Of a DNA stretch of 20,849 bases, positions 1 through 20,616 are shown piece after piece (the first letter of the stretch is position 1; the number at the start of each line of letters is the position of its first letter). The translations under genes were made by a program, and so were the position numbers. The stretch is from Deltaproteobacteria bacterium (GTDB lineage: Bacteria > SAR324 > NAC60-12), in the NCBI GenBank assembly GCA_038150265.1, contig JAYOTF010000002.1, positions 177,830 to 198,678 of the forward strand, written 5' to 3'. The notes below the pieces were generated by a model, which was not told where the DNA came from, did no database searches, and saw nothing but the letters and a program-made list of their open reading frames with translations.

Positions 1-1329
1 TCTGCTCCGGAGCCGTTGCTGCCCGCTGCGCTTTCCGGAAGCATGGGCCTCGATCTTTCCTACGCGTATGCGCGGGAGGCACCGACGGCTGCGACCGCTC
101 CGGACTGGAGCGGCCTCCGCAAGGCACGGGGCTCCGTGCGGCTCCGCTGGGACGAAAAGTATGGTGGGGTCCGGGTGTTGGTGGAAGGCAAGGCGGCTTA
201 TGACGCGGCTCCGGAACCCCTGGATGCCAGCAACTTGCCCACCTTTCCACTGGACTGGCGAGGCGCTTATGAAGACGCCCGGAAGCAGGAAGTCCGCGAG
301 GCCGAGTTTCGGGAAGCCTATGTGGCGTTTTCTCCTGCGGATTTCCTTGATGTCAAGCTTGGGCGCCAAATCGTGGTGTGGGGCAAGGCGGACGCGCTGA
401 CGGTTGTTGATGTGCTCAATCCTCGTGACAACCGGGAGGTGGGGCTTGTGGACTTGGCCGACATGCGCCTCCCGGTCACAGCGACACGGCTGGATTTTTA
501 CTGGAGTGGGGTGCAGCTTCAGGTTGTGGCCAACCACGAACTGCGCTTCAACAAGGAGGCCGGCTTTGGCAGCGAGTACTTCCTCTATCCTGATCCAGAC
601 AACCTGACTGCAACACAGAATGCCGCGTTGCTGAGTCCTGAGGTTCAGCCGGAAGCAGGAGGCACGAACACCGAGTGGGGGGTGGCTCTGAAGCGCAGCG
701 GCCTGGGCTGGGATCTGGCGCTGTACCATGCCGATGTGTTTGAAGATGCCCCTCATCTTTCCGGAACCCTGGCGCTTGTCAATGGGGGGCTGGTTCCTCA
801 AATCGACGGTCGCCGTTATGCCCGGCTGAAGCTGAACGGACTGGGAGGCACGTATGCGTCCGGAAGCTGGCTCTGGAAGGGAGAGGCGGCTCAGGTGCAG
901 GGCGTGCAGTTTTTTGGCTCCGACCAGAGTTTCTCCCGGACGGATCTGGCCACTGGAGTGGAGTATGCCGGTTTCACCGAGGCCCGCTTGATTGCTGAAG
1001 CTTCCGTGCAGCACCTCAACGAGTTTGACGAGATTCCGTACCGTGACGAAGGCCTGCCGAATGCGAATCTGCTGGAGGACATTTTGCGGGTGGTGCTGAG
1101 CTGGCAGCAGGACTTCTTGCAGCAAACCCTGCACGGCAACGTGACCCTCCTCAGTGTGGGACGCTCCGGAGAGCATGGCGGCTCGCAGCGAGTGAGCCTG
1201 GAGTACGACTGGACCGACCGCGTGAGCGTGACGGGTGGGGTGATGGACTACCGCGATGGGCAGAATGCCTACGCTCAGCAACTCGCAGACAACGACCGCG
1301 TGTACCTGAACCTCAAGTATACCTTCTGA
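1..1329 (+). CDS. Outer-membrane beta-barrel protein, DUF1302-like; 5' end probably outside the window
   Basis: Frame is open from base 1, so the TTG at 16 is probably not the true start. It has an LGRQIVVWGKAD..VDVLNPRD motif, alternating hydrophobic beta-strand patterns and a C-terminal Y-x-F (NLKYTF) beta-signal. The family name is from recall. Confidence 0.7.
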   Translation, partial: SAPEPLLPAALSGSMGLDLSYAYAREAPTAATAPDWSGLRKARGSVRLRWDEKYGGVRVLVEGKAAYDAAPEPLDASNLPTFPLDWRGAYEDARKQEVREAEFREAYVAFSPADFLDVKLGRQIVVWGKADALTVVDVLNPRDNREVGLVDLADMRLPVTATRLDFYWSGVQLQVVANHELRFNKEAGFGSEYFLYPDPDNLTATQNAALLSPEVQPEAGGTNTEWGVALKRSGLGWDLALYHADVFEDAPHLSGTLALVNGGLVPQIDGRRYARLKLNGLGGTYASGSWLWKGEAAQVQGVQFFGSDQSFSRTDLATGVEYAGFTEARLIAEASVQHLNEFDEIPYRDEGLPNANLLEDILRVVLSWQQDFLQQTLHGNVTLLSVGRSGEHGGSQRVSLEYDWTDRVSVTGGVMDYRDGQNAYAQQLADNDRVYLNLKYTF

Positions 1330-1377
1330 CCGGCGTCGCTCTTTTGCGTTCCGGAAGCGGCGGGCGTCTGCTCGGCT

Positions 1378-1602
1378 TCAGCGCCGGGAGGCTTGCACCG
1401 CTTGGGCAATCATCGCCTCAATCCGCGGGCGATACAGGTCCCAGACGTCTTGCCCCAACTCGGTGAGCTGGTGGCCGTACCCCTGACAGGCCAGGCACTT
1501 CCCGGGGATGTGAGGCTTCCAGGCGCCGACTTCTTCGTAACCGGCGGTGAATCCGGTTCCCCCGCATGTCTCACAGTGCTTCATCAAGTCCGCAATCAGC
1601 AT
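1378..1602 (-). CDS. Small Zn-finger protein, anti-TRAP (RtpA/YczA)-like, 74 aa
   Basis: ATG at 1602 gives MLIADLMKHCETCGGTG...GKCLACQGYGHQLTELGQDVWDLYRPRI. Two CxxCxGxG repeats are followed by LTxxG and an amphipathic helix. Weak GAGAG RBS. The longer 181-aa ORF overlaps dcd, so its N-terminal part is unlikely to be real. Confidence 0.75.
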   Translation of the reverse strand: MLIADLMKHCETCGGTGFTAGYEEVGAWKPHIPGKCLACQGYGHQLTELGQDVWDLYRPRIEAMIAQAVQASRR

Positions 1603-1646
1603 ATTTTCTCTCAGGTGGATACAGAACTGGCAGCCCTGCGTGAGGT

Positions 1647-1675
1647 ATGATAAAAAATCTCGTTTCTCTTGTCGG
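1647..1675 (-). promoter_or_regulatory. Candidate sigma70 promoter for the anti-TRAP-like gene
   Basis: Minus strand CCGACA (1675-1670), 17-bp spacer, TATCAT (1652-1647), about 45 nt upstream of the ATG at 1602. Confidence 0.45.
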
Positions 1676-1761
1676 TCGTCCGTTGTGTTTCCGGAAGGTT
1701 GCCGGTCGGAGCGCAGGAAAACAAATTCGTGAATCATGCCAACTTGTAAGGAGCCTCTGAA

Positions 1762-2283
1762 ATGATCATTCCGGACGTAGGACTGAAGCAACTTGTGGAA
1801 AACGGCTATCTTCCGGAAGGACTCCTGATTGGACCTTCCAGTGTGGACCTGACCCTTTCGAATTCCTTCAGCTGGCCGGATCCTCAGTCTGAGGAGATTG
1901 TTTTGGGGGAAACCGTGCCGCACCAGTCGGTGGAATCAGACCGGTTTGTGCTGGAGCCGCACCACTTCGTCCTGGCCAGCACTGCTGAGGTGATTCAGGT
2001 TCCAGAGCACATGGCCGCCTACGTGGAAGGACGTTCCAGCATTGGGCGCCTGGGGCTGCAGGTGCAGAACGCAGGGTTCATTGATGCCGGCTTCAAGGGG
2101 CAGATCACGCTGGAGCTGGCGAACCAATCGCCGTTTCCGATTGTCCTGAAGCCCGGAACCCGGATCTGCCAGATCGTGTTTGTGCAGATGGCTGAAGCCG
2201 CCGAGAAGCCGTACTCCGGAAAGTACGGGGGACAGATGGGCGCCACTCCGAGCCGTCTGGAGAAGGATCCGGAGTTCCGCTAA
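1762..2283 (+). CDS. dcd: dCTP deaminase, probably the dUMP-forming bifunctional type
   Basis: Motifs PSSVDLTL, EGRSSIGRLGL, AGFIDAGFKGQITLEL, RICQ and PYSGKYGGQ. RBS AAGGAG at 1748-1753. Confidence 0.95.
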   Translation: MIIPDVGLKQLVENGYLPEGLLIGPSSVDLTLSNSFSWPDPQSEEIVLGETVPHQSVESDRFVLEPHHFVLASTAEVIQVPEHMAAYVEGRSSIGRLGLQVQNAGFIDAGFKGQITLELANQSPFPIVLKPGTRICQIVFVQMAEAAEKPYSGKYGGQMGATPSRLEKDPEFR

Positions 2284-2393
2284 GCGGCTGGAGCCCAACT
2301 GATTGGCAAAAACGATCAGTTCCATCTCTGAAACCGATTGGACAAATCGGCATGAATTTCTCATGATCACTTCTTCAAGCGAAAGCCCCCTAC

Positions 2394-2421
2394 TTGATCA
2401 TTGGATCGGGGGTGCTACGCT
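2394..2421 (+). promoter_or_regulatory. Candidate sigma70 promoter for leuA
   Basis: TTGATC (2394-2399), 16-bp spacer, extended -10 TGc-TACGCT (2413-2421). Confidence 0.4.
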
Positions 2422-2512
2422 TTACAGTTCCTTCCTCTCCCGCTTCAGGAAGGCTCAATTGGCCTGACCGATTCCCGGTTTGGCGTTTCATCTCCATGGC
2501 TAGAGGTTCCTT

Positions 2513-4066
2513 ATGGAAACGATCCGCATTTTCGACACCACGCTCCGTGATGGGGAGCAGGCTCCAGGATTTTCCATGTCGGCCAGCGAAAAGCTAGGCC
2601 TCGCCAAGCAGCTGGAGCGCCTAGGGGTGGACGTCATTGAAGCCGGATTTGCGGCCTCCTCGCCCGGAGACTTTGAGAGTGTCCGTTCCATTGCCCAAGA
2701 GCTGGAGCGTGCCACGGTGGTGTCGCTGTGCCGGGCGTCAAAAGACGACATTGACAAAGCCGTGGAGGCGCTTCGGGGCGCGAAGCACTGGGGCATCCAC
2801 ACCTTCATTTCAACCAGCCCGCTGCACATGAAGTACAAGCTGCAGATGGAGCCGGAAGAGGTCCTGCAGGCGGCGGTGGAAGCCGTGGCTTATGCCAAGC
2901 AGTTCACCGATAACGTGGAGTTCAGTACCGAAGACGCCACTCGCAGTGACCCGGAATTCCTGATCCGGATTCTGTCGGAGGCGGTTCGGGCAGGAGCCGT
3001 GACGCTGAACGTTCCGGACACCGTGGGGTACACGACTCCGGAAGAATACCACCAGCTGATCACACGCCTGAGAAACGAGGTGTACAACGCGGACCAGGTG
3101 GTCTTTTCGGTACACTGCCACGACGACCTTGGTCTGGCGGTCGCCAACTCGCTGGCAGCCGTGAACGCGGGAGCCCGTCAGGTGGAGTGCACCATCAACG
3201 GCATTGGGGAGCGAGCTGGAAACGCTTCGATGGAAGAGCTCGTCATGGCGCTGAAGACGCGGCAGCAGTTTTACAACATCGACACCAACATTGTGACGGA
3301 GCAGCTGTATCCCACCAGCAAACTGCTGCAGCAGATCACAGGCGTGGGGGTGCAGCCGAACAAGGCCATCGTGGGGGCCAACGCTTTTGCACATGAGGCT
3401 GGCATTCACCAGCATGGGGTGTTGAAGAATGCCCTGACCTACGAAATCATGACCCCGCAGTCGGTGGGCATCAAGTCCAGCAACCTGGTTCTTGGCAAAC
3501 ACTCCGGACGGCATGCACTGGGGGACCGCATCAAGGAACTCGGCTTTGAGCTCAATGATGTGGAACTCAACCAGGTCTTCAAGGAGTTCAAGCGCCTGGC
3601 CGATGTGAAGAAGCAGGTCTTTGACGAAGACCTCGAAGCACTGGTCACCCATGGACTCCGCAAGCACTCGGAGCGTTACGTGTTCGAGAGCCTGACGGTC
3701 ACCTCCGGAACCGACACCATCCCCACCGCGACCGTCGTGATGCGTGTGGATGGAGAGTCGCACAAGCAGGCCAGCTTCGGAGACGGTCCGGTCGATTCGG
3801 CGATGAACACCATCAAGGACATCACGGGCATCCAGTGCACCCTGACGTCTTACGTGGTGAAGGCGATCACGGGCGGAACCGATGCACAGGGTGAAGTCAG
3901 TGTGGGCGTGGAGTACAAGGGCCTCCATGTGGTCGGACGCGGGGCCCACACAGACATTGTCATCGCCAGCGCGATGGCGTTTGTCAATGCCCTGAATCGC
4001 CTGGATGTTCGTTCGGGGGCGATCAGCCACATGATGCCGGTCCGGGCAGCAGTCGGAGGCGTGTAA
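2513..4066 (+). CDS. leuA: 2-isopropylmalate synthase
   Basis: [13 protein letters not shown] (DRE-TIM), [36 protein letters not shown] and LGKHSGR motifs, plus a C-terminal leucine-binding regulatory domain ([15 protein letters not shown]). RBS AGAGG at 2502-2506. Confidence 0.97.
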
Positions 4067-4108
4067 GCCCCACCGCCTTCCGTCCCTTCCCTCCCGGATC
4101 CCTTCCTC

Positions 4109-4135
4109 AGGCGGGCCGACACGGTCCGCCTTTTT
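4109..4135 (+). terminator. Rho-independent terminator after leuA
   Basis: AGGCGGGCCG-ACA-CGGTCCGCCT forms a 10-bp stem with one G-U pair and is followed by a T run. Confidence 0.8.
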
Positions 4136-4137
4136 CA

Positions 4138-4165
4138 TTGCGCTCCTCCAAATAGTTTGTAGAAT
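4138..4165 (+). promoter_or_regulatory. Candidate sigma70 promoter for leuS
   Basis: TTGCGC (4138-4143), 16-bp spacer, TAGAAT (4160-4165), directly after the terminator and 50 nt before the leuS ATG. Confidence 0.55.
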
Positions 4166-4215
4166 GAAGGGTTTGGTTTTTCTCCTACAGAACCGTCCAC
4201 TCGTTTCACAAGCCC

Positions 4216-6687
4216 ATGCAGGATTACCAACCCGGAGAAATTGAAGCCAAGTGGCAACGCCACTGGGAGCAGACCGGTCAATTCACTCCTGATCTCAATC
4301 CCGACCGCAAGAAGTTTTACATGCTGACGATGCTGCCGTATCCCTCAGGGGACCTGCACATCGGGCACTGGTACGCGATGGCGCCTTCCGACGCTTACGC
4401 TCGCTTCAAGGCGATGCAGGGGCATGAGGTGTTCTTTCCGATTGGCTTTGACGCCTTTGGGCTTCCAGCGGAGAATGCGGCGATCAAGCACAACATCCAC
4501 CCCAAGGAGTGGACGTACCAGAACATTGAGCGCATGCGGGGGCAGCTTCGTTCCATGGGGAACCGCTTTGCGTGGGACCACGAGGTCATCAGCTGCGATC
4601 CGGACTACTACAAGTGGAGCCAGTGGTTCTTCCTCCGGATGCTGGAGAAAGGCCTGGCCTACCGAGAGCATGCGCCGGTGGACTTCTGCAACCACTGTCA
4701 GACCACGCTGGCCCGCGAGCAGGTATGGGGGGACGAGCGCCTCTGTGAACGCTGCAACAATCCGGTGGTCAAGAAGGCGCTGAACCAGTGGAAGCTGCGC
4801 ATCACCGACTACGCGGAAGAGCTGCTGGACTTTTCGCAGATCGAGTGGCCGGAAAAAGTGCGGCTCATGCAAACCAACTGGATTGGACGTAGCGAGGGGG
4901 CGGAGTTTGCCATTGCCGTGCAGGGGCATGAGCAAAGCTTCCGGGTCTTCACCACCCGTCCGGATACCGTGTTTGGGATGAGCTTTTGTGTGCTGGCCCC
5001 GGAGCATGAGCTGGTGGAAGCGATCACCACGCCCGAGCAGCGAGAGGCTGTGGACGCTTATCGGGAGTTGGCTGCACGCAAGGAAGAAATTGAGCGGACT
5101 GCCGAAGGCAAGGAAAAGGACGGGGTGTTTACCGGCGCCTATGCCCTCAATCCAATGAACGGACAGGCGGTGCCAATCTGGATTGCCGACTACGTCCTCG
5201 CCTCTTACGGGACCGGTGCCATCATGGCGGTTCCCGCTCATGACGAGCGCGACTTCGCCTTTGCCCGCAAGTATGGTTTGCCGACCCCGGTCGCCGTGGT
5301 GGAAGTTGGCACCCACGATGTTCCGGAAGGCTCCGAGTTGGAGGAGCCCCTCCTGGTCAAGGAAAACTCGGTGATGGTCAATAGCGATGCCTTCACCGGA
5401 AAGGCCTGGCCGAGCAGTTTTGATGCTGTGGTTGAACACATGGAGGCTGCCGGGTTTGGGGCGCGACAGGTGAACTATCGGCTCCGGGACTGGCTGATCA
5501 GTCGGCAACGGATGTGGGGGACGCCGATTCCCGTGGTGTACTGTGGCACCTGTGGCCTCCAACCGGTTCCGGATGCCGAGCTTCCGGTGACGCTTCCGGA
5601 TGATGCCGAGTTCAAGCCGACGGGTGAGAGCCCCCTCAAGCACCACCAGGGCTTCCTGAAGGCTGAGTGCCCCAAGTGTCATGGACCTGCAGAGCGGGAA
5701 ACTGACACGATGGACACCTTCATTTGCTCCTCCTGGTATTACTACGCCTACCTCTTCCCCTACTGGCAAAAGGGTGAAACGCTGAGCGCCGACAGCCAGC
5801 CATGGGACCGCGAGGTCATGAAGCGCTGGGCACCTGTGGATCAGTACACCGGAGGCATTGAGCATGCGACGATGCACCTGCTCTACTTCCGCTTTTACAC
5901 GAAGGTGCTGGCGGATCTGGGGCTGCTGAGCTTCCGGGAACCGGCGCTGCGGCTTTACAACCAGGGGATGATCCTGGGGGAGGACCATGAGAAGATGTCC
6001 AAGAGCCGTGGCAACGTGGTCAATCCGGATGAGCTGGTGCAGCGTTACGGAGCGGACACCGTCCGGACCTACCTGATGTTCCTGGGGCCCTGGGATGCCG
6101 GTGCTCCGTGGAACCCGCAGGGCATTGAAGGTGCGGCCCGCTTCCTCAAGGCCGTGTGGTCCCTGGTGCAGCAGCCACTTCCGGAAGCCGCCGGAGAGGC
6201 CGCAGTCGAGAAGAAGGTGCAGCGTGCCCTGCATCAGATGATCCAGAAGGTGTCGGAAGACATGGCGCACTTCCGCTTCAACACCGCGATTGCTGCGATG
6301 ATGAGCTTCCGGAATGTGCTGAAGGCTGAAGGCATTGGGCGGAGCCTGATGCTGGAGTCTCTGCAGGCGCTGCTGCGGTTGCTGGCTCCGATTGCACCGC
6401 ACCTGACGGAAGAACTGTGGCAGGTACTGGCTCCGGAAACCGGAAGCGTCCATGCTCAGCCGTGGCCGACTTTCGACCCTTCCCTGACCAAGGAGGATGA
6501 GGTCACCATCGCGGTGCAGGTCAACGGCAAGGTCCGGGAACGGCTGGAAGTGCCCGCGGATCTTTCTAAAGATGAGTTGGAACAACAGGCGCTTCAGGCC
6601 CCCAGGCTCCAACCTCACCTGGAGGGGAAGACGGTTCGCCGTGTGATTGTGGTCCCGGGGCGGCTGGTTAATATCGTGGTGAACTAA
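4216..6687 (+). CDS. leuS: Leucine--tRNA ligase
   Basis: MLPYPSGDLHIGH, GFDAFGLPAENAA, CP1 editing motifs FTTRPDT and GTGAIMAVPAHDERD, DWLISRQR, KMSKS and the C-terminal VQVNGKVR...LVNIV. Confidence 0.98.
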   Translation: MQDYQPGEIEAKWQRHWEQTGQFTPDLNPDRKKFYMLTMLPYPSGDLHIGHWYAMAPSDAYARFKAMQGHEVFFPIGFDAFGLPAENAAIKHNIHPKEWTYQNIERMRGQLRSMGNRFAWDHEVISCDPDYYKWSQWFFLRMLEKGLAYREHAPVDFCNHCQTTLAREQVWGDERLCERCNNPVVKKALNQWKLRITDYAEELLDFSQIEWPEKVRLMQTNWIGRSEGAEFAIAVQGHEQSFRVFTTRPDTVFGMSFCVLAPEHELVEAITTPEQREAVDAYRELAARKEEIERTAEGKEKDGVFTGAYALNPMNGQAVPIWIADYVLASYGTGAIMAVPAHDERDFAFARKYGLPTPVAVVEVGTHDVPEGSELEEPLLVKENSVMVNSDAFTGKAWPSSFDAVVEHMEAAGFGARQVNYRLRDWLISRQRMWGTPIPVVYCGTCGLQPVPDAELPVTLPDDAEFKPTGESPLKHHQGFLKAECPKCHGPAERETDTMDTFICSSWYYYAYLFPYWQKGETLSADSQPWDREVMKRWAPVDQYTGGIEHATMHLLYFRFYTKVLADLGLLSFREPALRLYNQGMILGEDHEKMSKSRGNVVNPDELVQRYGADTVRTYLMFLGPWDAGAPWNPQGIEGAARFLKAVWSLVQQPLPEAAGEAAVEKKVQRALHQMIQKVSEDMAHFRFNTAIAAMMSFRNVLKAEGIGRSLMLESLQALLRLLAPIAPHLTEELWQVLAPETGSVHAQPWPTFDPSLTKEDEVTIAVQVNGKVRERLEVPADLSKDELEQQALQAPRLQPHLEGKTVRRVIVVPGRLVNIVVN

Positions 6688-6706
6688 AAACATTTGTGTT
6701 TTTCGG

Positions 6707-6735
6707 TTGACCCGTCCCAGTCGAAGTGCTAGGAT
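6707..6735 (+). promoter_or_regulatory. sigma70 promoter of the ribosomal superoperon (PrpsL)
   Basis: TTGACC (6707-6712), 17-bp spacer, extended -10 TGc-TAGGAT (6727-6735), with an AT-rich tract immediately upstream. Confidence 0.7.
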
Positions 6736-6785
6736 TGCTGTTTGCTTATTTGTAGGTTGCTACCACTGAAAGATTTTTTCGCAAC

Positions 6786-7154
6786 ATGCCAACGCTGAGT
6801 CAACTGGTCCGGAACGGACGAAAGAGCAAAGTCTCGAAGAAAGATACCCCGGCCCTGCAGGAATGCCCGCAGCGTCGTGGAGTGTGCGTGAGGGTCTACA
6901 CCTCGACGCCGAAGAAGCCGAACTCGGCCTTGCGGAAGGTGGCGAAAGTCCGCCTGACGAACGGAGCCGAAGTGATTAGTTATATCCCTGGGATCGGCCA
7001 CAACCTTCAGGAGCACTCGGTGGTTCTGATCCGGGGTGGTCGTGTCAAGGACCTTCCGGGATGCCGGTATCACATCATCCGCGGAGCCTTGGACTCGCAG
7101 GGGGTTAAAAATCGCAAGCAAGCCCGTTCCAAGTACGGTGCTAAAAAAGGATAA
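6786..7154 (+). CDS. rpsL: 30S ribosomal protein uS12
   Basis: [45 protein letters not shown]. Confidence 0.99.
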
Positions 7155-7162
7155 GAAAACGC

Positions 7163-13389: not shown

Positions 13390-13395
13390 GAAGCA

Positions 13396-13725
13396 ATGAG
13401 TTCAGCTACCGCACGAAACGTCCGGATCTCTCCTCGCAAAGCACGCCTGGTGGTCGATGCCATCCGGGGGCTGAGTGTGCCCTTGGCACTGGCCCGGTTG
13501 AGCAACCTTCCGAACAAGGGAGCCCGAGACGTCATCAAGGTTTTGAAGTCTGCCTTGGCCAACGCTGACCAGCAGGACTCCTCTGTGGATGTCGACAGTC
13601 TGCAGGTCCGCCTGGCTTATGTTGACGAGGGACCAACCCTGAAGCGCTTCCGTCCTCGGGCAATGGGACGCGCATACCCGATTCGCAAACGAACGAGCCA
13701 CATCACCGTTGTGGTGGGCGAGTAA
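13396..13725 (+). CDS. rplV: 50S ribosomal protein uL22
   Basis: [36 protein letters not shown]. Confidence 0.99.
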
Positions 13726-13745
13726 CATTTCATTAGGAACTCAAC

Positions 13746-14405
13746 GTGGGCCAGAAAGTCAATCCGATCGGACTCCGAGTAGGCATTTCCAAACCGTGGG
13801 CTTCCACTTGGTTTGCAGAGCGTGACTACGCGACGCAACTCAAGGAGGACATGGAAATCCGCAATTACGTCAAGAATCGCCTGCGGCATGCAGCGATCTC
13901 CAAGATTGAAATCGAGCGCACGGCAAAGAAGACCAAGGTCAACATCTTCTCCGCTCGTCCCGGGATCATCATTGGTCGCAAGGGAGACGAGGTGGAGCGT
14001 CTGAAAGCCGAGCTGGCCAAGCGTTCTGAGGGTGAAATCGTTGTCAACATCAAGGAAATCAAGCGTCCTGAGATTGATGCGACCTTGATTGCGGAGAACA
14101 TTGCAAACCAGCTGGAGCGCCGGATTGCGTATCGCCGGGCCATGCGTCGGGCCATGAGCTCTGCCATGCGGATGAACATTGCCGGCTGCAAGATGATGGT
14201 GGCTGGTCGCCTCAATGGGGCTGAAATTGCCCGGACCGAGTGGATCCGGGAAGGTCAGGTCCGCCTGCACACGCTGCGGGCCGACATTGATTACGGAGTG
14301 GCTGAGGCGCATACGACCTATGGTGTCATCGGCGTAAAAGTTTGGGTGTATCGCGGAGAGAACTTCGAGAAGAACCGCACCCGTCGAGCCAGAAGAAAGG
14401 ACTGA
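13746..14405 (+). CDS. rpsC: 30S ribosomal protein uS3 (GTG start)
   Basis: [43 protein letters not shown]. Confidence 0.99.
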
Positions 14406-14411
14406 TTCATC

Positions 14412-14828
14412 ATGTTGATGCCCAAACGGACTAAGTTCCGCAAGCAGATGCGTGGCCGCATGAGCAATGATGCTCAAAGCGGTAACTATATCAGCTTCGG
14501 GTCCATCGGACTCCAAGCAACGGAGAGTGGTTACATCACCACCCGCCAGATCGAAGCGGCACGACGTGTCATTTCCCGAGCCATGAAGCGGAGTGGAAAG
14601 ACCTGGATCCGCATCTTTCCTGACAAGCCGGTGACGCGCAAGCCTGCCGAAGTCCGGATGGGAAAGGGAAAAGGCTCCGTGGATACCTGGGTGGCTCCGA
14701 TTCACCCGGGCCGCATCCTTTATGAGATCGATGGGGTTCAGGATGAAGTGGCTGAAGAAGCCCTGCGCCTGGCAGCCTACAAGCTTCCCATCAAAACACG
14801 AATCGTGAAACGGGCCGCTGTTATATGA
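14412..14828 (+). CDS. rplP: 50S ribosomal protein uL16
   Basis: [27 protein letters not shown]. Confidence 0.99.
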
Positions 14829-15031
14829 AAGCTTCAGAACTCCGGGCACTCTCGGTTGAAGAACTCACCCAGAAGCGAGATGAGTTCAAGGAGGAGCACC
14901 TCCGTTTGCGTTGCAACAACGCGTTGCGGCAACTGCAGGACGTGCAGATGCTCAAAAAGCGCCGGCGCGATATTGCCCGAATCAATACCATCCTGAGCGA
15001 AAAGCAGGCTCAGGCGTCAACAATTTCGTGA
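14825..15031 (+). CDS. rpmC: 50S ribosomal protein uL29
   Basis: MKASELR...RRDIARINT, located between rplP and rpsQ. Confidence 0.96.
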
Positions 15032-15043
15032 CCGTAGGCGAGC

Positions 15044-15298
15044 ATGCAGAAGCTAAAGATTAAACGAGGGGTCGTCGTGAGCGACAAGATGGAAAAGTCC
15101 ATCGTTGTGGCCGTTGAGACGAAAGCCAAGCACCCTCTGTACAAGAAGACGATCAAGCACACGAAGAAGTACACGGCTCACGACGAAGCCAATGAGTGCA
15201 AAGTGGGAGACCTCGTGGAGATTGCCGAGTGCCGGCCGCTGAGCAAGCACAAGCGCTTCCGGCTGATCAAGCGCAATGAAGGAAAGGCTGGAGAATGA
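15044..15298 (+). CDS. rpsQ: 30S ribosomal protein uS17
   Basis: [32 protein letters not shown]. Confidence 0.99.
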
Positions 15299-15663
15299 TT
15301 CAGACACAGACTCGACTGGAAGTAGCCGACAACTCAGGCGCCAAGAGCATCATGTGCATCAAGGTGCTCGGGGGATCCCGTCGCCGCTACGCTCGCGTGG
15401 GAGACATCATTGTGGCTTCCGTGAAAAGCGCGTTGCCGAACTCGAAGGTGAAGTCCGGTGATGTGGTAAAGGCCGTGGTGGTGCGGACCAAGAAGGAATA
15501 CCGCCGCGCGGATGGCACGCACATCCGCTTCGACAAGAACGCCGCAGTTGTCATTGACAACAAGCGTGAGCCGGTAGGAACCCGTATCTTTGGACCCGTT
15601 GCCCGCGAACTGCGTACGGGTAAGTTCATGCGGATCCTTTCGCTGGCTCCCGAAGTACTTTAA
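15295..15663 (+). CDS. rplN: 50S ribosomal protein uL14
   Basis: [31 protein letters not shown] overlap with rpsQ. Confidence 0.99.
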
Positions 15664-15672
15664 GGAAAGACG

Positions 15673-16023
15673 ATGTCTACGAAGAAAACGAACCAGCGCC
15701 GCAAGAGCGTTGCGAGAATCAAGCGAGGCGACACGGTGATCGTCATTTCCGGAAAAGAAAAAGGCTCCACTGGAAAGGTGTTGCTGGTTGACTGGAAGAA
15801 CGAGCGTGTGTTGGTGGAGGGTGTCAACATGGTGACCAAGCACATGAAGCCCAACCCTCAGAATCAAGAAGGCGGACGGATTCAAAAAGAAGCCCCGCTC
15901 CACTACTCCAATATCCAGCTGTACAACGCCTCCCTTGAGCGTGGGGTTCGCTTCCGCACCGTCAAGACGGAGTCCGGAGAGAAGCAGCGGATTTGTGTCA
16001 AGACCTCGGAAGTACTGGGTTGA
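15673..16023 (+). CDS. rplX: 50S ribosomal protein uL24
   Basis: KOW motif [29 protein letters not shown]. Confidence 0.98.
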
Positions 16024-16024
16024 A

Positions 16025-16570
16025 ATGCAACAAAGCCATCTATATCAGACCTATCAAACCGCTACGGTTCCTAAGCTGAAGGAGAAGTTCTCCTACGCGA
16101 ACCCCCATCAGATTCCCGGCCTGGTGAAAGTGACCCTGAACATCGGTTTGGGGGAAGCCGTGCAGAATCCGAAAGTGATCGACGCAGCCGTGGAGCAACT
16201 GGCCCAGATCTCTGGACAGAAGCCGGTTGTGACCCGCGCCAAGAAGTCCATTGCAGGCTTCAAGCTCCGCGAAGGCATGCCAATTGGCTGCATGGTCACC
16301 CTGCGAAGTCAGCGCATGTGGAACTTCCTCGACAAGCTCATTCATGTCGCCCTCCCCCGCGTCCGGGACTTCCGGGGCATCTCCCCGCGTGCCTTTGATG
16401 GCCGGGGAAACTACTCCATGGGCCTGAAGGAGCAACTGATCTTCCCGGAAATCGACTTCGACAAGATTGATGCGGTCCGGGGGCTCAACATCGCGATCAA
16501 TACTACTGCGAAAACCGACGAAGAAAGTTTTGCGTTGCTGGAATCGCTCGGGTTTCCTTTCCGAAAGTAA
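16025..16570 (+). CDS. rplE: 50S ribosomal protein uL5
   Basis: The ATG at 16025 (MQQSHL), just after the rplX stop, is preferred over the track start at 15935. Motifs [28 protein letters not shown]. Confidence 0.97.
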
Positions 16571-16574
16571 GACC

Positions 16575-16760
16575 ATGGCCAAGAAATCAATGATTGCCAA
16601 GGCGGCCCGAAAGCCCAAGTTTGAAGTTCGGGTCCATAACCGCTGCAACTACTGTGGCCGTCCCCGTGGGTATCTGCGAAAGTTCGGCATGTGCCGCGTC
16701 TGCTTCCGCCAGAAAGCAAGCTTCGGCCTGCTGCCGGGAGTGACCAAGGCAAGTTGGTGA
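16575..16760 (+). CDS. rpsN: 30S ribosomal protein uS14, type Z (Zn-binding, 61 aa)
   Basis: MAKKSMIAK...[10 protein letters not shown]...MCRVCFR...[11 protein letters not shown] at 16575. Confidence 0.98.
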
Positions 16761-16792
16761 ACACCCATTATTCAGTAAGATAAGGTTCTCCT

Positions 16793-17188
16793 ATGTCAAT
16801 GACCGATCCGATTGCGGACCTGCTGACCCGTATTCGTAATGCGAACATGCGCCAGAAGCCCACGCTGAGTGTGCCCAGCTCGAAGATGAAGCGAGCCATT
16901 GTGCAGGTACTCAAGGATGAAGGCTTCATTCAAGACTTCCAGGAAGAAGATGATCAACCGGTGAACCGGATTGACATCACCCTGCGGTACCAGCAGGGCG
17001 TCCCCGTGATCCGCCAGCTCATCCGGGTCAGCAAGCCGGGACTGCGCCAGTACCTCAAGGCTGGAGACATCAAACCGGTGGTGAATGGACAGGGCATTTC
17101 AATTGTGTCCACATCCCAAGGCGTTCTGACCGACCGACAGTGTCGGGAACAACACATCGGAGGAGAAATCCTCTGCAAAGTTTGGTAA
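16793..17188 (+). CDS. rpsH: 30S ribosomal protein uS8
   Basis: TDPIADLLTRIRNA, SKPGLR.Y, STSQGV, GGEILC.VW. Confidence 0.99.
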   Translation: MSMTDPIADLLTRIRNANMRQKPTLSVPSSKMKRAIVQVLKDEGFIQDFQEEDDQPVNRIDITLRYQQGVPVIRQLIRVSKPGLRQYLKAGDIKPVVNGQGISIVSTSQGVLTDRQCREQHIGGEILCKVW

Positions 17189-17203
17189 GCAGAGTTCAAG
17201 ATT

Positions 17204-17743
17204 ATGTCACGAATTGCAAAGCGCCCGATCCCTGTGGCTCCGGGTACAAAAGTTCAATTTAGCAACCGTCAGTTGGTCCTGTCCGGCCCTAAGGGAGAGC
17301 AATCCCTGGCCTTGCATCAAGACGTGAATCTGGACGTAAGCGACACCGCACTGCTCGTGCAGCCGGCCAATCCGGAAGGCAAGCCGTCTCCGATGCTGGG
17401 CACCACGTACGCGCTCATCAAGAACATGATGCAGGGTGTGAGTCAGGGCTTTCAGAAGGAACTGAGCCTCGTTGGTGTCGGTTACCGTGCTGCCCTGAGT
17501 GGCACCCGCCTGGAGCTGAACCTCGGGTTCTCGCACCCGGTGATGTATGAGTTGCCCAAGGGCGTCAGTGCCAACATTACCGCCAACACCAAAATCATGC
17601 TCGAAAGTGCGGACAAGCAGCTGCTCGGGCAGGTTTCTGCAGAGATTCGCAAGTTCCGTCCGCCGGAGCCTTACAAAGGAAAAGGCATTCTGTTTACCGG
17701 TGAGGTCTTGCGGCGCAAAGCAGGCAAGAGTGGCAAAAAGTAA
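17204..17743 (+). CDS. rplF: 50S ribosomal protein uL6
   Basis: MSRIAK.PI, GVGYRA, LGFSHPV, RPPEPYKGKG. Confidence 0.99.
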   Translation: MSRIAKRPIPVAPGTKVQFSNRQLVLSGPKGEQSLALHQDVNLDVSDTALLVQPANPEGKPSPMLGTTYALIKNMMQGVSQGFQKELSLVGVGYRAALSGTRLELNLGFSHPVMYELPKGVSANITANTKIMLESADKQLLGQVSAEIRKFRPPEPYKGKGILFTGEVLRRKAGKSGKK

Positions 17744-17763
17744 GAGCTAATCAAGGATAGAAG

Positions 17764-18120
17764 ATGTCCAAAGTCCGTAGTCGTACCGAAGTTCGCAAAA
17801 CGCGTCACCGTCGCGTACGCAAGAAGGTTTCGGGAACTGCCGCCCGCCCCCGATTGGTGGTGTTCCGCTCCAACCAGCACATCTATGCACAGGCCATTGA
17901 TGACCTCCAGGGCCACACCCTGGCCTCGGCCTCCAGTGTCGGAATGAAGCTGGAAGCAGGAGGAAACAAGGAAGCGGCTCAGCAAGTTGGCAGTGCCGTG
18001 GCCAAGAAACTGATGGAACTTTCCATCAACCAAGTCGTCTTTGACCGTGGAGGCTACCTCTACCATGGTCGCGTCCAAGCAGTTGCAGAAGGCGCACGCG
18101 AGCAAGGACTGGTGTTTTAA
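17764..18120 (+). CDS. rplR: 50S ribosomal protein uL18
   Basis: [28 protein letters not shown]. Confidence 0.99.
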
Positions 18121-18140
18121 CCCAAGCTGAGGAACAGAAG

Positions 18141-18641
18141 GTGGCAGAGAAGCCAGGAGAAAAAAACGAACTGATCGAAAAAGTGATCAGGGTCAATCGA
18201 GTGGCCAAGGTGGTGAAAGGCGGCCGTCGCTTCAGCTTCAGCGCCCTCGTCGTGGTTGGTGACGGAAACGGAAAAGTGGGACTCGGGCTGGGCAAAGCCA
18301 ACGAGGTGACGGAAGCGATCCGCAAGGCCGTAGTGGAAGGAACCCGCCGGATGCAGTTTGTGCAACTGGAAGAAGGCTCCATTCCTCATGAAATCAACGG
18401 ACATGCGGGATCAGGCCGCGTGCTCATGAAGCCGGCCTCCAAGGGACACGGCATCATTGCCGCAGGTCCGGTCCGTGCGGTCATGGAAGCCGTCGGCATC
18501 TCGGACATCAGCGTCAAGTGCCTGGGCTCCCGCAACCCACACAACCTGGTCCGCTCCACCCTCAAAGCCCTTTATGAACTGCGTAGCTTCGACCAAGTTG
18601 CTCGCCTACGCGACAAAGAAGTCGCTTACCTGCGAACCTGA
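18141..18641 (+). CDS. rpsE: 30S ribosomal protein uS5 (GTG start)
   Basis: [37 protein letters not shown]. Confidence 0.99.
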
Positions 18642-18643
18642 CC

Positions 18644-18829
18644 ATGGCTAAGAAGATTCAAGTGACCCAAATCCGTAGCGGCATCGGGTCCACGACCAAG
18701 CAACGCGAGTCCCTCAAAGGCCTGGGACTGCGCAAGATCAATCATACTGTTGAGCTGGAAGGCACGCCTTCGATCCTGGGAATGGTCCGGAAGGTCTCCC
18801 ACCTCGTCAAAGTTCAAATCGCGGAGTGA
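18644..18829 (+). CDS. rpmD: 50S ribosomal protein uL30
   Basis: IRSGIG, LGLRKIN, GMVRKVSHLV. Confidence 0.97.
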   Translation: MAKKIQVTQIRSGIGSTTKQRESLKGLGLRKINHTVELEGTPSILGMVRKVSHLVKVQIAE

Positions 18830-18831
18830 CC

Positions 18832-19278
18832 ATGTACCTGCACGAGTTGCCGGATACCGGAAATAAAAAACGGAAGCGCATCGGACGGGGTCCGGGAAGC
18901 GGTTTCGGAAAGACCTCAGGAAAAGGACACAAAGGCGCCAAGGCCCGTTCCGGAGCCAAGACCAAGCGAGGCTTTGAAGGGGGCCAAACCCCAATCAACC
19001 GACGTCTTCCCAAATTCGGCTTTACCAGTCCGAACAAGATCAGCTACCAGCTGGTCAACCTGAAGCGTTTGGAAAGCGACCAGCGTGTCACCGCCGATTC
19101 CTCCCTGACCAAGGAAGAGCTCCGTGGCCTGGGGCTGATCCGGAGCCTCAAGCAGCCGGTCAAGCTGCTTGGAGATGGAACGCTGACCAAGAAACTCCAC
19201 ATTACCGTTGACGCGGCAAGCCAATCTGCCATTGAGGCCGTCAAGGGCTTGGGTGGAGACGTAGTCATCGGAGGCTGA
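18832..19278 (+). CDS. rplO: 50S ribosomal protein uL15
   Basis: RIGRGPGSG.GKTSGKGHKG, GFEGGQTP..RRLPKFGF. The ATG at 18832 lies 5 nt after GGAG; the GTG at 18826 is an alternative start. Confidence 0.98.
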   Translation: MYLHELPDTGNKKRKRIGRGPGSGFGKTSGKGHKGAKARSGAKTKRGFEGGQTPINRRLPKFGFTSPNKISYQLVNLKRLESDQRVTADSSLTKEELRGLGLIRSLKQPVKLLGDGTLTKKLHITVDAASQSAIEAVKGLGGDVVIGG

Positions 19279-19284
19279 TCCTTC

Positions 19285-20616
19285 ATGTGGACGACCATTC
19301 AGAACATCTTCCGAATTGAAGAGTTAAGGGCTCGGATCATCTTCACGATCGCGATGCTATTCGTGTTCCGGATTGGTGCCCACATCCCGACTCCAGGCAT
19401 CGACGGTGCGGCGCTGACCGATTTCTTTCAGCAGCAGCAAGGCTCGATCCTGCGATTCTTTGACATGTTCACAGGAGGAGCACTTGCTCGACTGACGGTC
19501 TTTGCCCTTGGGGTGATGCCGTACATCAGTGCCTCCATCATCATCCAACTCCTGACCGTTGTGTTTCCTTACCTGGAGCGACTTTCCAAGGAAGGAGACA
19601 TGGGCCGCAAGAAAATCACGGCCTACACGCGCTATGGAACCATTGTCCTGAGCATCGTTCAGGGCTTTGCCATTGCCGTCGGTCTGGAAAGCATGGCGGC
19701 TCCGGACGGCTCGCCCGTGGTGATCTCCACGATGTCGCCCTGGGCATTCCGGGCACTGACGGTCATTACCCTGACAGCAGGCACCGCCTTCCTGATGTGG
19801 GTTGGAGAGCAGATCAACGAGCGTGGCATTGGCAACGGCATTTCGTTGCTGATCTTTGCAGGAATCGTGGTGGACATTCCGGGAGCGGTGATCAACTCAG
19901 CCCAGCTGGTGCAGACCGGTGAGCTGCCGATCCTGATCCTGTTGATTGTCGGACTCCTGATGGTTGGGGTGATCTTCGCGGTGATCTTCACCGAGACGGC
20001 GTACCGTCGCATCCCGGTTCAGTATGCCAAGCGCCTGCAGGGCAATCGGATGTACGGAGGGCAAAGCTCACACCTGCCTCTGAAAATCAACTCGGCTGGG
20101 GTGATTCCTCCGATTTTTGCCTCGTCAATTCTGGCATTTCCTGCAACAATTACCGGTTTCTTCACGATTCCCTGGGTCAAGTGGGTCAGTGACCAACTGA
20201 TGCCCGGCCGATTCCTGTATTCGGTGGTCTTCGTGATGTTGATCTTCTTCTTCTGTTTCTTCTACACCGCGATTCAGTTCAATCCGGTGAAGATTGCTGA
20301 GGAGATGAAGCGTCATGGCGGGTACATCCCGGGGATTCGTCCGGGAAAGAAGACAGCAGAGTACCTCAATCAGGTTCTGACTCGATTGACCACTGGAGGC
20401 GCATTTTACCTCTCCGTCATCTGTATCCTCCCCAGCATCCTGTTCGTGGTCTTCAATGTCCCGTTCAGCTTTGGAGGCACCGCCCTGTTGATTGTGGTGG
20501 GCGTGGGACTGGATCTGGTCAATCAGATTGAAGCCTTCTTGCTGAATCAGAACTACGACGGCTTCCTGAAGAAATCACGAAGGCGTCCCTTAAAGACCGG
20601 CTCCCTCCGGTTGTGA
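19285..20616 (+). CDS. secY: Preprotein translocase subunit SecY
   Basis: ALGVMPYISASII, GIGNGISLLIFAGI, RRIPVQYAKR, GVIPPIFASS, IPGIRPG, FGGTALLIVVGV, and about 10 TM segments. Confidence 0.99.
   Translation: MWTTIQNIFRIEELRARIIFTIAMLFVFRIGAHIPTPGIDGAALTDFFQQQQGSILRFFDMFTGGALARLTVFALGVMPYISASIIIQLLTVVFPYLERLSKEGDMGRKKITAYTRYGTIVLSIVQGFAIAVGLESMAAPDGSPVVISTMSPWAFRALTVITLTAGTAFLMWVGEQINERGIGNGISLLIFAGIVVDIPGAVINSAQLVQTGELPILILLIVGLLMVGVIFAVIFTETAYRRIPVQYAKRLQGNRMYGGQSSHLPLKINSAGVIPPIFASSILAFPATITGFFTIPWVKWVSDQLMPGRFLYSVVFVMLIFFFCFFYTAIQFNPVKIAEEMKRHGGYIPGIRPGKKTAEYLNQVLTRLTTGGAFYLSVICILPSILFVVFNVPFSFGGTALLIVVGVGLDLVNQIEAFLLNQNYDGFLKKSRRRPLKTGSLRL

Follow-up and report, generated by a model that had tools for sequence, protein, structure and literature searches.

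TCCGGA as a hyper-abundant DNA-level palindrome with helically phased site pairs in one family of SAR324 bacteria

Short genomic words related to TCCGGA

The closest described relatives of TCCGGA are the highly iterated palindromes (HIPs) of cyanobacteria, which occur roughly once per kb and, where frequent, are accompanied by a methyltransferase that targets the word or its core (Elhai 2015, PMC4390886). For HIP1 (GCGATCGC), Xu et al. (2018, PMC5861425) describe a periodicity of 18-94 kb and selection that seems to act on the distribution of sites, not on single sites. HIP1 and the alternate HIPs share with TCCGGA a GC-rich palindromic sequence, lineage-wide hyper-abundance and occurrence in all frames and in non-coding DNA, and HIP1 and TCCGGA are alike in being kept beyond the expectation from codon conservation and in being sparse in highly expressed genes. 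HIP1 differs in length (8 bp versus 6 bp), sequence and host (cyanobacteria versus SAR324), and the HIP density of roughly one per kb contrasts with one TCCGGA per 349 bp; searches here for a cognate pair of methyltransferases, of the C5 or the GATC type, were negative. Whereas the period reported for HIP1 is 18-94 kb, TCCGGA has one of 10.5 bp with a lineage-specific sign, the 87-contig assembly analyzed being too fragmented for the kb scale. With many-fold genome-wide over-representation of a palindrome, presence in all frames and in non-coding DNA, sharing across a lineage with exceptions and conservation beyond codons, TCCGGA in its SAR324 family shares these features of the HIP class.

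In enterobacteria, Dam GATC is the mark of an orphan methyltransferase, and SeqA needs two sites that lie on the same helix face within a few turns of each other. A same-face excess as in genomes G000 and G002 and genus g11 (below) would be expected from a mechanism of this type; GATC is, however, less hyper-abundant than TCCGGA, and MutH was sought here and not found. We know of no case of a same-face deficit of sites. Very-short-patch repair by Dcm/Vsr raises CCWGG in E. coli, so that, as in the methylation-linked drive considered below, a methyltransferase-linked repair bias shifts the genome-wide frequency of a short palindrome; here, in contrast, Vsr and a C5 enzyme were not found, single-position T-to-C changes do not dominate the substitutions, and the effect is far larger. 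Uptake sequences (USS in Pasteurellaceae, DUS in Neisseria) are 9-12 bp long, non-palindromic, oriented and present about once per kb; like TCCGGA, they are short words whose spread over coding and non-coding DNA reflects a weak force acting across the genome, and their positions turn over rapidly; to our knowledge they show no helical phasing. TCCGGA itself is cut by BspEI, AccIII and Kpn2I, and is avoided in genomes G086 and G087 as a restriction target would be; in family f1, by contrast, it is over-represented, and no endonuclease was found.

Abundance, lineage distribution and turnover of TCCGGA

The window, the whole stretch of 20,849 nt analyzed from genome G000, contains 53 TCCGGA by motif match (6..19706; being palindromic, the word reads alike on both strands). 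Across 100 dinucleotide-preserving shuffles the count averaged 7.56 and peaked at 15, and in none did it reach 53. The extended form TTCCGGAA was matched 12 times (33..15754; starts 33, 759, 1349, 1689, 1811, 5321, 6179, 6307, 8258, 8965, 9006 and 15747), with shuffles averaging 0.46 and never exceeding 3. An earlier sequence-only reading of this DNA, which had counted about 53 sites and 12 extended ones with less than 1 of the latter expected, was exact in both counts and in every position. In the 3.39-Mb assembly of G000 (87 contigs, largest 214 kb; 97.8% complete), 9,711 sites place TCCGGA at rank 1 among all hexamers (2.9 per kb overall, or one per 349 bp), and each of the 46 contigs over 20 kb carries 2.4-3.8 per kb; the signal is genome-wide, as had been proposed, and enrichment of the window alone is ruled out. 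TTCCGGAA occurs at 1,129 sites (O/E 27) and the 10-mer CTTCCGGAAG at 275 sites (O/E 70). Beyond 3 bp on each side the flanks of TCCGGA in G000 are near background, and T at position -1 is favoured in G000, G002, G013 and G044, not in G001. The suggested comparison with other CCGG palindromes showed the excess to be specific to TCCGGA, with ACCGGT, GCCGGC and CCCGGG unenriched in G000 (O/E 0.67-0.68).

Over Markov models of increasing order, the O/E of TCCGGA in G000 was 8.69 (order 0), 7.57 (order 1), 3.95 (order 2), 2.39 (order 3) and 1.22 (order 4). The last two values are what favours reading the excess as a by-product of codon, dipeptide or base-composition bias with no DNA-level feature. 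They do not amount to a refutation, because at these orders the expectation is drawn from TCCGG and CCGGA, sub-words that carry the signal. The sequence-only reading had staked its case on both Markov and codon-preserving models; enrichment does shrink under the former, but under within-gene synonymous codon shuffling (10 replicates) only 2,039-2,176 sites were formed against 8,737 observed in coding DNA, a 4.1-fold excess. It extends to all three codon phases (2,081/2,545/4,111 observed, ~530/770/820 after shuffling, each 3-5 fold up), and the phases claimed for individual sites match the gene frames (2215, phase 0, in the dCTP-deaminase gene at 1762-2283; 4634, phase 1, and 5322, phase 2, in leuS at 4216-6687). 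Protein-permissible positions carry TCCGGA in 8,737 of 21,702 cases (40.3%), the Pro codon CCG is used at 63.6% preceding Asp/Glu versus 39.5% elsewhere, and non-coding DNA holds 966 sites (2.30 per kb; coding DNA 2.94 per kb). TCCGGA tops the hexamers at 43%, 57% and 61% GC, and genus g2 (9 genomes), with similar proteins, lacks the excess. The synonymous shuffle, the usage of permissible positions, the neutral genus and the top rank across the GC range refute the by-product reading, to which we give next to no credence. The signal lies at the DNA level, as had been claimed from its spread over all frames and non-coding DNA and as the roughly 4-fold drop on synonymous shuffling bears out: TCCGGA is a DNA-level word held at very high density by weak genome-wide per-site pressure in one SAR324 family.

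Specificity across lineages was checked on genome samples. A TCCGGA-specific excess was found in this one family (genera g1, g11, g12 and g4), at 14-30 times the control word in g12; genera g2, g5, g8 and g9 are neutral. SAR324 lineages outside the enriched family are neutral, or avoid all CCGG, or avoid TCCGGA alone. In G084, which avoids CCGG, RE_HpaII lies beside a C5 methyltransferase. G086 and G087 have 0 TCCGGA in ~50 kb at normal CCGG, ACCGGT and ACCGGA, and restriction of exactly TCCGGA therefore occurs in the phylum.

Between G000 and G002 (81.9% overall identity), 534 of 1,140 aligned G000 sites are common (47%); for sites of the window, the shared fractions are 30/53 (G002), 15/44 (G001), 10/36 (G013), 5/23 (G012) and 0/11 (G003). 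Third-base retention in the G000/G002 comparison, inside versus outside sites, was.667 versus.558 for CCG,.765 versus.602 for CGG,.683 versus.623 for TCC and.679 versus.500 for GGA. The probability of a site given a site was.590 versus.183 given a non-site, with about.3 expected arithmetically if two synonymous positions decay independently. Individual sites turn over fast among close relatives, yet outlast matched synonymous positions; the proposed check of conservation in orthologues thus came out in favour of the word, with the third base higher at all four codons tested. One-off substitutions at sites between G000 and G002 are broadly spread, CCCGGA being the largest class (27%) and the deamination-type partners TCTGGA and TTCGGA accounting for 16.5% and 5.3%.

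Helical phasing of site pairs and its possible origin

Pair spacings in G000 have a spectral power of 45 at 10.5 bp; the background stays at or below 6.3, and five control words stay at or below 5.9. At the same period, the power was 4.5 for permissible and 3.3 for unused sites, did not exceed 6.3 in 30 trials of random relabelling, and was 13-18 in each third of the contigs. Pairs across genes have an amplitude of.137 at a phase of 331 degrees, and same-gene pairs.180 at 333 degrees; the probability of usage varies with helical phase between.358 and.470, a modest relative amplitude of 0.18. In G013, used sites have an amplitude of.276 at 197 degrees and permissible sites.031, the protein-level controls covering G000 and G013, not g11. 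G000, G002 and G013 have periods of 10.45-10.55 bp, and phasing reaches roughly 400 bp, fading over a few hundred bp. Neighbouring TCCGGA are not independently placed: their spacing has the period of B-DNA, crosses gene borders and is missing from protein-permitted positions.

The sign of the phasing was measured on pairs summed over three integer-turn versus three half-turn windows. Integer turns prevail in G000 (358 v 203), G002 (206 v 140), G018 (253 v 58) and G005 (87 v 24), and in 13 of 13 genomes of genus g11 with at least 30 pairs, the strongest pair excess in this genus lying at 30-32 bp. Half turns prevail in G013 (44 v 205), G062 (30 v 151), G063 (1 v 87) and G001 (85 v 175); same-face pairs are depleted in 3 of 3 g12 genomes and nearly all gone in one species (1 versus 87). 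In g12 and G001, pairs at 30-32 and 41-43 bp stand at 0.04-0.38 times random and half turns at about 1.0-1.8 times, the expected counts being based on rounded genome sizes. The sign is lineage-specific, with a same-face excess in G000, G002 and g11 and a deficit in g12 and in G001, a congener of G000 and G002; as the 13 g11 genomes are kin and count as one lineage, about four to five independent lineages underlie the regimes. Between the sites of listed pairs the sequences are unrelated, and therefore no repeat element is involved; a REP/MITE-like element was rejected on this ground and on the near-background flanks. No rotational register with A/T-rich dinucleotides was found, even around 3,851 isolated sites, and the phasing is thus no general bending code.

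The lineage-dependent sign of the phasing points to a factor reading TCCGGA in pairs. Our preferred reading, held tentatively and at somewhat less than even confidence, is that TCCGGA is a weakly maintained docking site for a putative abundant multivalent DNA-binding factor, which would contact at least two sites at once by side-by-side cooperativity, bridging or short looping; holding two or more sites at once, it would sense their rotational setting. Same-face pairs may then accumulate where pairing is useful, and be purged where pairing is harmful or the geometry of the factor differs. A same-face cooperative binder alone does not account for the deficit in g12 and G001, and a change of geometry or of the sign of fitness must be added; the phase split within one genus (G000 and G002 versus G001) requires the switch to be rapid. 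Neither a candidate reader protein nor a histone-fold protein was found. Among the four roles that the sequence-only reading had offered (methylation, repair, DNA uptake and chromosome organisation), chromosome organisation fits best because of the 10.5-bp helical phasing of site pairs; the methyltransferase link and uptake are unsupported.

A two-site nuclease or recombinase could instead act on same-face pairs and purge them where active (g12, G001), with a separate cause for the abundance. Many CCGG-family restriction enzymes need two sites, the g12/G001 regime is an integer-turn deficit (down to 0.04-0.38 times random) and not a half-turn excess, and the avoidance of TCCGGA alone in G086 and G087 shows restriction of the exact word within the phylum. 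Genomes under restriction, however, normally lose the restricted site, and g12 carries it at 14-30 times the control word; the g11 excess is left unexplained, and no endonuclease was found, the search for the Bse634I/Cfr10I family (matches in 0 of 88 genomes) having been run without a positive control and being uninformative. We consider such an enzyme unlikely. A plain restriction-modification target was rejected for the enriched genomes, in which the word is over-represented, not avoided, and neither methyltransferase described below is adjoined by an endonuclease. Improbable as well is an origin in intrinsic DNA mechanics with no dedicated reader, whereby phasing of an anisotropically bendable TCCGGA would tune curvature or supercoil geometry: the period of 10.45-10.55 bp and the fading over a few hundred bp, a scale close to that of DNA stiffness, agree with it, but mechanics gives no reason to favour TCCGGA over other CCGG-containing palindromes, and the opposite sign in congeners of similar base composition, the near-total same-face avoidance in G063 and the missing A/T-dinucleotide register speak against it.

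In a methylation-linked drive, an orphan methyltransferase would mark TCCGGA, and methyl-dependent repair or mismatch bias, or selection on the strand mark, would raise its frequency, in keeping with the co-occurrence of HIP1 and alternate HIPs with cognate methyltransferases (Elhai 2015, PMC4390886). G000 encodes two putative SPPY amino-methyltransferases, one of them present only in G000 and G001. The conserved orphan enzyme (C51:248-1384 in G000) is solitary and vertically inherited, its motif I precedes the SPPY motif IV, and among PDB entries it matches N4-cytosine methyltransferases best (E 1.7e-5). The advised search for an orphan methyltransferase thus yielded a candidate, but one whose distribution does not follow the trait. 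Orthologues of 46-49% identity occur in the non-enriched G003, G014 and G010, none was found in the enriched G011, G017 and G018 (the last 87% complete), and motif IV reads APPA, a broken catalytic motif, in the enriched G004. The core is collinear in 12 orthologues, with just 4 of 392 columns separating enriched from non-enriched genomes. No endonuclease gene adjoins the orphan enzyme in G002, G001 or G013, and none was found beside either SPPY methyltransferase. C5 methyltransferase, Vsr and MutH were not found in G000, and a search of the 24 genomes of g1, g11 and g12, the three genera with the highest enrichment, recovered no intact C5 enzyme. The HIP1-like methyltransferase link drawn in the sequence-only reading thus lacks support. 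The broad substitution spectrum also weighs against this drive, and drive by repair predicts neither helical phasing nor a flip of its sign; it is distinctly doubtful. Still less probable, and very much so, is an uptake or recombination signal spread by drive as with USS/DUS. ComEC, the only competence gene sought, is present in G000; with matches in 10 of 14 control genomes, its presence says little, and the uptake option of the earlier reading has no support beyond this ubiquitous gene. A 6-bp palindrome at 2.9 per kb does not belong with the uptake signals above, which are longer, oriented and at about 1 per kb, and neither helical phasing nor a sign that depends on lineage would be expected from uptake. 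In favour of it, a preprint (10.1101/2024.09.10.611283) reports that Synechococcus PCC 7002 is transformed more readily when the donor DNA carries HIP1, an effect that depends on methylation.

Site usage along the window

The first part of the window is the denser one, as described before: the stretch 1..6813 (+ strand), with the genes for a DUF1302 protein, dCTP deaminase, LeuA and LeuRS, holds 30 sites (4.4 per kb), and the remainder 23. The site-poor cluster at 6786..19278 (+ strand), assigned by Pfam families to ribosomal proteins and elongation factors (S12, S7, EF-G, EF-Tu, S10 ... L15), uses 18 of 80 permissible positions (22.5%) versus the genome mean of 40.3%; usage in the window's non-ribosomal genes is 29 of 53 (54.7%). 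Two 5-kb segments, C2:190001 and C2:192501, are among the poorest of the genome, with 6 and 7 sites versus a mean of 14.5. In the most highly expressed genes, codon selection overrides the TCCGGA pressure.

Two sites of the TTCCGGAA type (1350-1355 and 1690-1695), named as intergenic in the sequence-only reading, both lie inside the 432 bp that separate the DUF1302 gene from dcd (1330-1761), a gap in which no tRNA, no Rfam family and no Pfam match for the sole long antisense ORF were found. The site at 1165..1170 is polymorphic among strains, with G at 1170 (TCCGGG) in contigs from two other public runs; among 40 listed strain differences, 1170 is the only one that falls in a TCCGGA site.

Abundance of TCCGGA in the window and its genome

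Exact counting gave 53 copies of the TCCGGA palindrome in the window, the figure that the sequence-only reading had estimated by hand, against 7.56 on average and at most 15 in dinucleotide-preserving shuffles. The extended word TTCCGGAA was recovered 12 times (shuffle mean 0.46), every copy where that reading had placed it, and the gene frames bore out its three codon-phase examples and its two intergenic examples. The uneven density it had described was also found, with 30 sites up to position 6,813 and 23 beyond it. As it had supposed, the signal extends beyond the window to the whole genome (G000; 3.39 Mb, 87 contigs, 97.8% complete), with 2.4-3.8 sites per kb on all 46 contigs larger than 20 kb. 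The palindromes ACCGGT, GCCGGC and CCCGGG are without enrichment (observed/expected (O/E) 0.67-0.68, whole G000).

TCCGGA is the commonest hexamer of G000, with 9,711 sites, equivalent to one per 349 bp or about 1.7% of all letters (9,711 × 6 / 3.39 Mb). Its O/E is 8.69 relative to base composition and 7.57, 3.95, 2.39 and 1.22 relative to Markov models of order 1, 2, 3 and 4, respectively. The value of 1.22 at order 4 was considered as a refutation and discarded in favour of a synonymous shuffle, because the sub-words themselves bear the signal. Genome-wide, TTCCGGAA occurs at 1,129 sites (O/E 27) and CTTCCGGAAG at 275 (O/E 70), with the flank preference gone within three bases. Several other palindromes are nearly missing from G000, namely those containing CTAG and some others (CCTAGG, CATATG and ACTAGT at O/E 0.03); CTGCAG and TGATCA exceed expectation about 3-fold.

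For the synonymous shuffle, a crude gene model of our own was used (2,693 ORFs, 87.6% coding). Coding DNA carries 8,737 sites (2.94 per kb), distributed over the codon phases as 2,081 / 2,545 / 4,111, and non-coding DNA 966 (2.30 per kb). Ten within-gene synonymous shuffles yielded totals of only 2,039-2,176 sites, compared to the 8,737 observed. Of the 21,702 permissible positions, where the encoded amino acids allow the word, 40.3% are used, against about 9.7% after shuffling, which by arithmetic from the counts corresponds to an odds ratio near 6. The preference is visible in single codons: proline is encoded by CCG in 63.6% of cases before Asp/Glu versus 39.5% elsewhere, and the base preceding CCG-GA is T in 65% versus 32%. 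A pressure corresponding to this odds ratio is similar in size to codon-usage selection, in agreement with the sparseness of sites in the ribosomal cluster and with the site turnover described below.

In the window (G000:C2:177830-198678), genes for a DUF1302 protein, dCTP deaminase, LeuA and LeuRS precede the S12-S7-EF-G-EF-Tu-S10...SecY cluster; tRNA and Rfam searches gave no matches in it. In its ribosomal and elongation-factor cluster, which ranks among the poorest TCCGGA stretches of G000, 18 of 80 permissible positions are used, against 29 of 53 in the other genes of the window. Density also falls to 1.7 per kb near start codons. Over 5-kb windows it is close to Poisson (variance/mean 1.13, range 3-33 sites), and none of these windows is site-free. 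TCCGGA is abundant, weakly maintained at each site, and defeated by codon selection. The scarcity in the ribosomal cluster resembles that of the cyanobacterial highly iterated palindrome HIP1, which is reported to be scarce in highly transcribed regions (PMC5861425).

Distribution and turnover of sites across SAR324

The EF-G of G000 is only about 55% identical to that of named genomes, and homologues of one G000 protein are labelled SAR324 cluster bacterium (66% and 52% identity). The distribution of the word was surveyed in 88 genomes of the phylum, using the reversed word AGGCCT as a control. The TCCGGA/AGGCCT ratio is elevated in the genera g1 (which includes G000; 3.9-5.9 fold), g12 (14-30 fold), g4 (3-8 fold) and most of g11 (6-32 fold; 1.6 in three poorly complete members), about 1 in g2 (nine genomes), g5, g8 and g9, and lowered 5-100 fold in several SAR324 lineages. 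Specificity was refined on samples of 18-60 kb per genome. In the sampled genomes of g1 and g12 and in G044 (g11), which cover GC contents of 43%, 57% and 61%, the excess is specific to TCCGGA, which also holds the top hexamer rank. An enrichment in families f4 and f7 suggested by AGGCCT as the sole control was dismissed, as sampling showed AGGCCT to be depleted there and CCGG to be in excess in general. Within g11, the excess spans from 1.6-fold (G041, G049, G050; 51-57% complete) to 32-fold (G044; 43% GC), with a GC content of 31-36% in the low-excess members sampled (G049, G050); this spread means either that the trait has truly been lost or gained or that some genomes are mis-binned.

Avoidance takes two forms. 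In G083, G084, G023 and G021, all CCGG is avoided (O/E 0.08-0.31, samples), and in G084 an HpaII-type endonuclease gene adjoins a C5 methyltransferase gene (G084:C5:127578-131510). In G086 and G087, from another SAR324 family, TCCGGA alone is avoided, with 76 and 15 sites in 3.1 Mb and none in about 50 kb sampled, at normal CCGG, ACCGGT and ACCGGA, which is the signature that a TCCGGA-specific restriction system would leave. Two candidates for this putative system were rejected: the C5 methyltransferases of the two genomes are unrelated (27% identity), and their large N6/N4-type proteins resemble other kinds of systems.

Site conservation in orthologues, named by the sequence-only reading as a check, was assessed between G000 and its congener G002 (390 kb aligned, 81.9% identity), which have 534 sites in common, out of 1,140 in G000 and 912 in G002. 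Conservation of all hexamers is 33.6%, TCCGGA ranking 122 of 1,040. For each of the four codons, a synonymous third base is kept more often when it lies within a site. At positions permissible in both genomes, the probability of a site in one is.590 given a site in the other, and.183 given a non-site. Window sites are common to G002 in 30 of 53 cases, to the congener G001 in 15 of 44, to G013 (g12) in 10 of 36, to G012 in 5 of 23, and to the non-enriched G003 in 0 of 11; at aligned positions, these genomes carry a further 18, 19, 25, 7 and 3 sites, respectively, that the window lacks. Aligned partners that differ from a site by one base fall in nine classes, the largest being CCCGGA (27%). From this spread and the turnover counts it follows that TCCGGA is a weakly maintained density trait and not a set of fixed elements, and that it bears no mark of one particular repair pathway. 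A parsimony polarisation in the window (gains 11+11 versus losses 4+3) was set aside, as an outgroup of 76% identity is saturated. In strain contigs from four of the 15 public runs that contain this stretch, 1 of the 40 differences listed of 571 destroys a site and none creates one, at expectations of 0.64 and 0.11, counts too small for power.

Helical phasing of site pairs and its sign

In the pair-distance spectrum of G000, a peak of power 45 stands at 10.5 bp over a background of at most 6.3. Five control words reach at most 5.9, and the peak is missing from the permissible positions as a whole (4.5), the unused ones (3.3) and 30 random relabellings (at most 6.3). The phasing is still present at 100-400 bp (16.2) and gone past 600 bp, is found in each third of the contigs, and has equal amplitude and phase for pairs within genes and pairs across genes or intergenic DNA. 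No register of A/T-rich dinucleotides was detected around the G000 sites. The protein-level control with permissible sites was also run in G013 (1.23 Mb), in which a period of 10.45-10.50 bp is confined to used sites (.276 versus.031). The spacing maxima lie at about n×10.5-0.8 bp in G000 (phase 334 degrees) and at n×10.5+5.8 bp in G013 (phase 197 degrees), with a bootstrap resultant of at least 0.99 for both; the phasing of G002 resembles that of G000. Irrespective of this long-range register, spacings of 9-10 bp are over-represented at very short range in both G000 and G013, with 45 pairs at 9 bp in G000, and those of 11-17 bp form a trough.

Whole-genome pair counts were obtained for the 45 genomes of the family in six 3-bp windows, each comprising one distance per codon phase, at integer turns (30-32, 41-43, 62-64 bp; same helix face) and half turns (36-38, 47-49, 67-69 bp; opposite faces). 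A separate histogram of G000 matches the counts in the four windows checked, and the rounding of the relatives' genome sizes touches expected values but not integer-versus-half comparisons. An integer-turn excess (regime A) was found in G000 (358 versus 203 pairs), G002 (206 versus 140), G005 (87 versus 24) and, as related and hence non-independent genomes, all 13 g11 members with at least 30 pairs; of these, G018 has 253 versus 58 pairs, or 5.9-fold the random level at 3 turns, 3.6-fold at 4 turns and 2.0-fold at 6 turns. An integer-turn deficit (regime B) was found in the g12 genomes G013 (44 versus 205), G062 (30 versus 151) and G063 (1 versus 87), and in G001 (85 versus 175), a congener of G000. 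For G001, phasing from 420 kb had been at noise level (amplitude.07), and the pair counts settled the regime; G011, G015, G061, g6 and g3 have too few pairs for assignment. G001 also departs from G000, G002, G013 and G044 in the base preceding the site (position -1), favouring C (39%) where they favour T.

Site pairs are thus sensed through the helix, and the lineage-specific register is a new result. Relative to random, half-turn counts in regime B reach no more than 1.0-1.8 times and integer-turn counts 0-0.7 times; therefore same-face pairs are avoided, rather than opposite faces attracted.

Interpretation and candidate genes

SeqA on GATC pairs and looping repressors act in dependence on the helical phase of two sites. 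By analogy with such two-site proteins, and given the exact B-DNA period, the range of a few hundred bp and the independence of coding, we infer that a multivalent DNA-binding factor senses the pairs. The opposite signs may stem from the same factor acting with a different geometry; alternatively, one lineage may benefit from the very pairing that harms another, e.g. via a two-site nuclease. As a tentative proposal, which we regard as possible rather than probable, TCCGGA would be the address of a new sequence-specific chromosome-structuring system, in which an abundant multivalent protein docks at thousands of sites and couples neighbours via the helix. The system would have two evolutionary states, with same-face pairing favoured or forbidden, switchable between species of one genus. 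If so, G000 and G002 versus G001 would constitute a natural experiment, in which gene-content comparison could reveal the protein or a modification it reads.

The role of highly iterated palindromes is a decades-old question, to which TCCGGA adds a second case, independent of HIP1 and from an unrelated marine phylum of global abundance. For HIP1, a 2018 paper (PMC5861425) states that more than 20 years of study had not demonstrated a function. In contrast to HIP1, TCCGGA offers a short word with usage measurable against a defined permissible set, a helical phasing that shows physical sensing of site pairs, and a phasing sign that differs between sister lineages, even congeners. The last makes the question tractable as one of what separates same-face-favouring from same-face-forbidding genomes. 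The word also skews the codon-pair statistics of these organisms, their binning by k-mers and the restriction-based methods applied to them. In literature searches of article main texts, we found nothing joining TCCGGA with SAR324, no mention of TCCGGA in bacteria in work on over-represented palindromes, and no mention of a highly iterated palindrome in work on SAR324; Elhai 2015 (PMC4390886), searched likewise, does not contain TCCGGA.

In G000 (97.8% complete), no C5 methyltransferase, type I/IIG N6 enzyme, Vsr or MutH was found, and genera g1, g11 and g12 yielded no intact C5 enzyme. A histone-fold protein as wrapping agent was dropped, with none found in G000. The Bse634I/Cfr10I endonuclease family matched 0 of 1 and 0 of 88 genomes in searches whose controls had no match either. 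The sequence-only reading had named a search for an orphan methyltransferase recognising CCGG or TCCGGA as a check. As candidates, G000 encodes two SPPY amino-methyltransferases, on contigs C45 and C51, the latter solitary and also present in non-enriched genomes. On C45 (G000:C45:1404-5096), a reverse transcriptase (RVT_1; ORF 35-1444 of that stretch) overlaps a 258-aa SPPY N6/N4 methyltransferase (1441-2217), followed by a 311-aa protein of no family (2224-3159). The group looks like a mobile or defence module, and its methyltransferase occurs only in G000 and G001 (71% identity).

The C51 enzyme (G000:C51:1-1387) is vertically inherited, lies among housekeeping genes and is usually followed by a gene for a TerB-domain protein. 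In g1 and g12, its open frames comprise 614-732 aa (called ORFs 580-731 aa), with a basic, low-complexity N-terminal tail of 100-350 residues; 12 orthologues share a collinear core. Most have SPPY as motif IV, with NPPY in G013 and APPA in the enriched G004. The best PDB matches are N4-cytosine methyltransferases, which weakly back N4-cytosine methylation, presumably the activity that SPPY points to. Since the enzyme also occurs in non-enriched genomes, and three enriched genomes gave no match to it, it is at most a necessary part of the trait, not its determinant.

For the regime difference, samples of regime-B genomes (12% of G001, 36% of G013) were compared with G000. In the G001 sample, 46 of 353 proteins had no G000 match, and the 29 of these run against Pfam belong mainly to metabolic islands (nos cluster, hydrogenase). 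Two of them have a match in the G013 sample as well: one is RraA-like, and the other is a fusion of an APH-type kinase with an Ogt-type DNA-binding domain (G001:C4 14391-15713, minus strand; without counterpart in G000). The latter and a G001-only DUF3782 protein with a PD-(D/E)XK nuclease domain (G001:C8, 446-1396 of the sampled piece, minus strand) are possible leads from this 12% of G001. The nos (nitrous-oxide reductase) island, without G000 match, spans about 15 kb at G001:C4:1-16000 and encodes NosD, NosL, NnrS and a Crp-type regulator.
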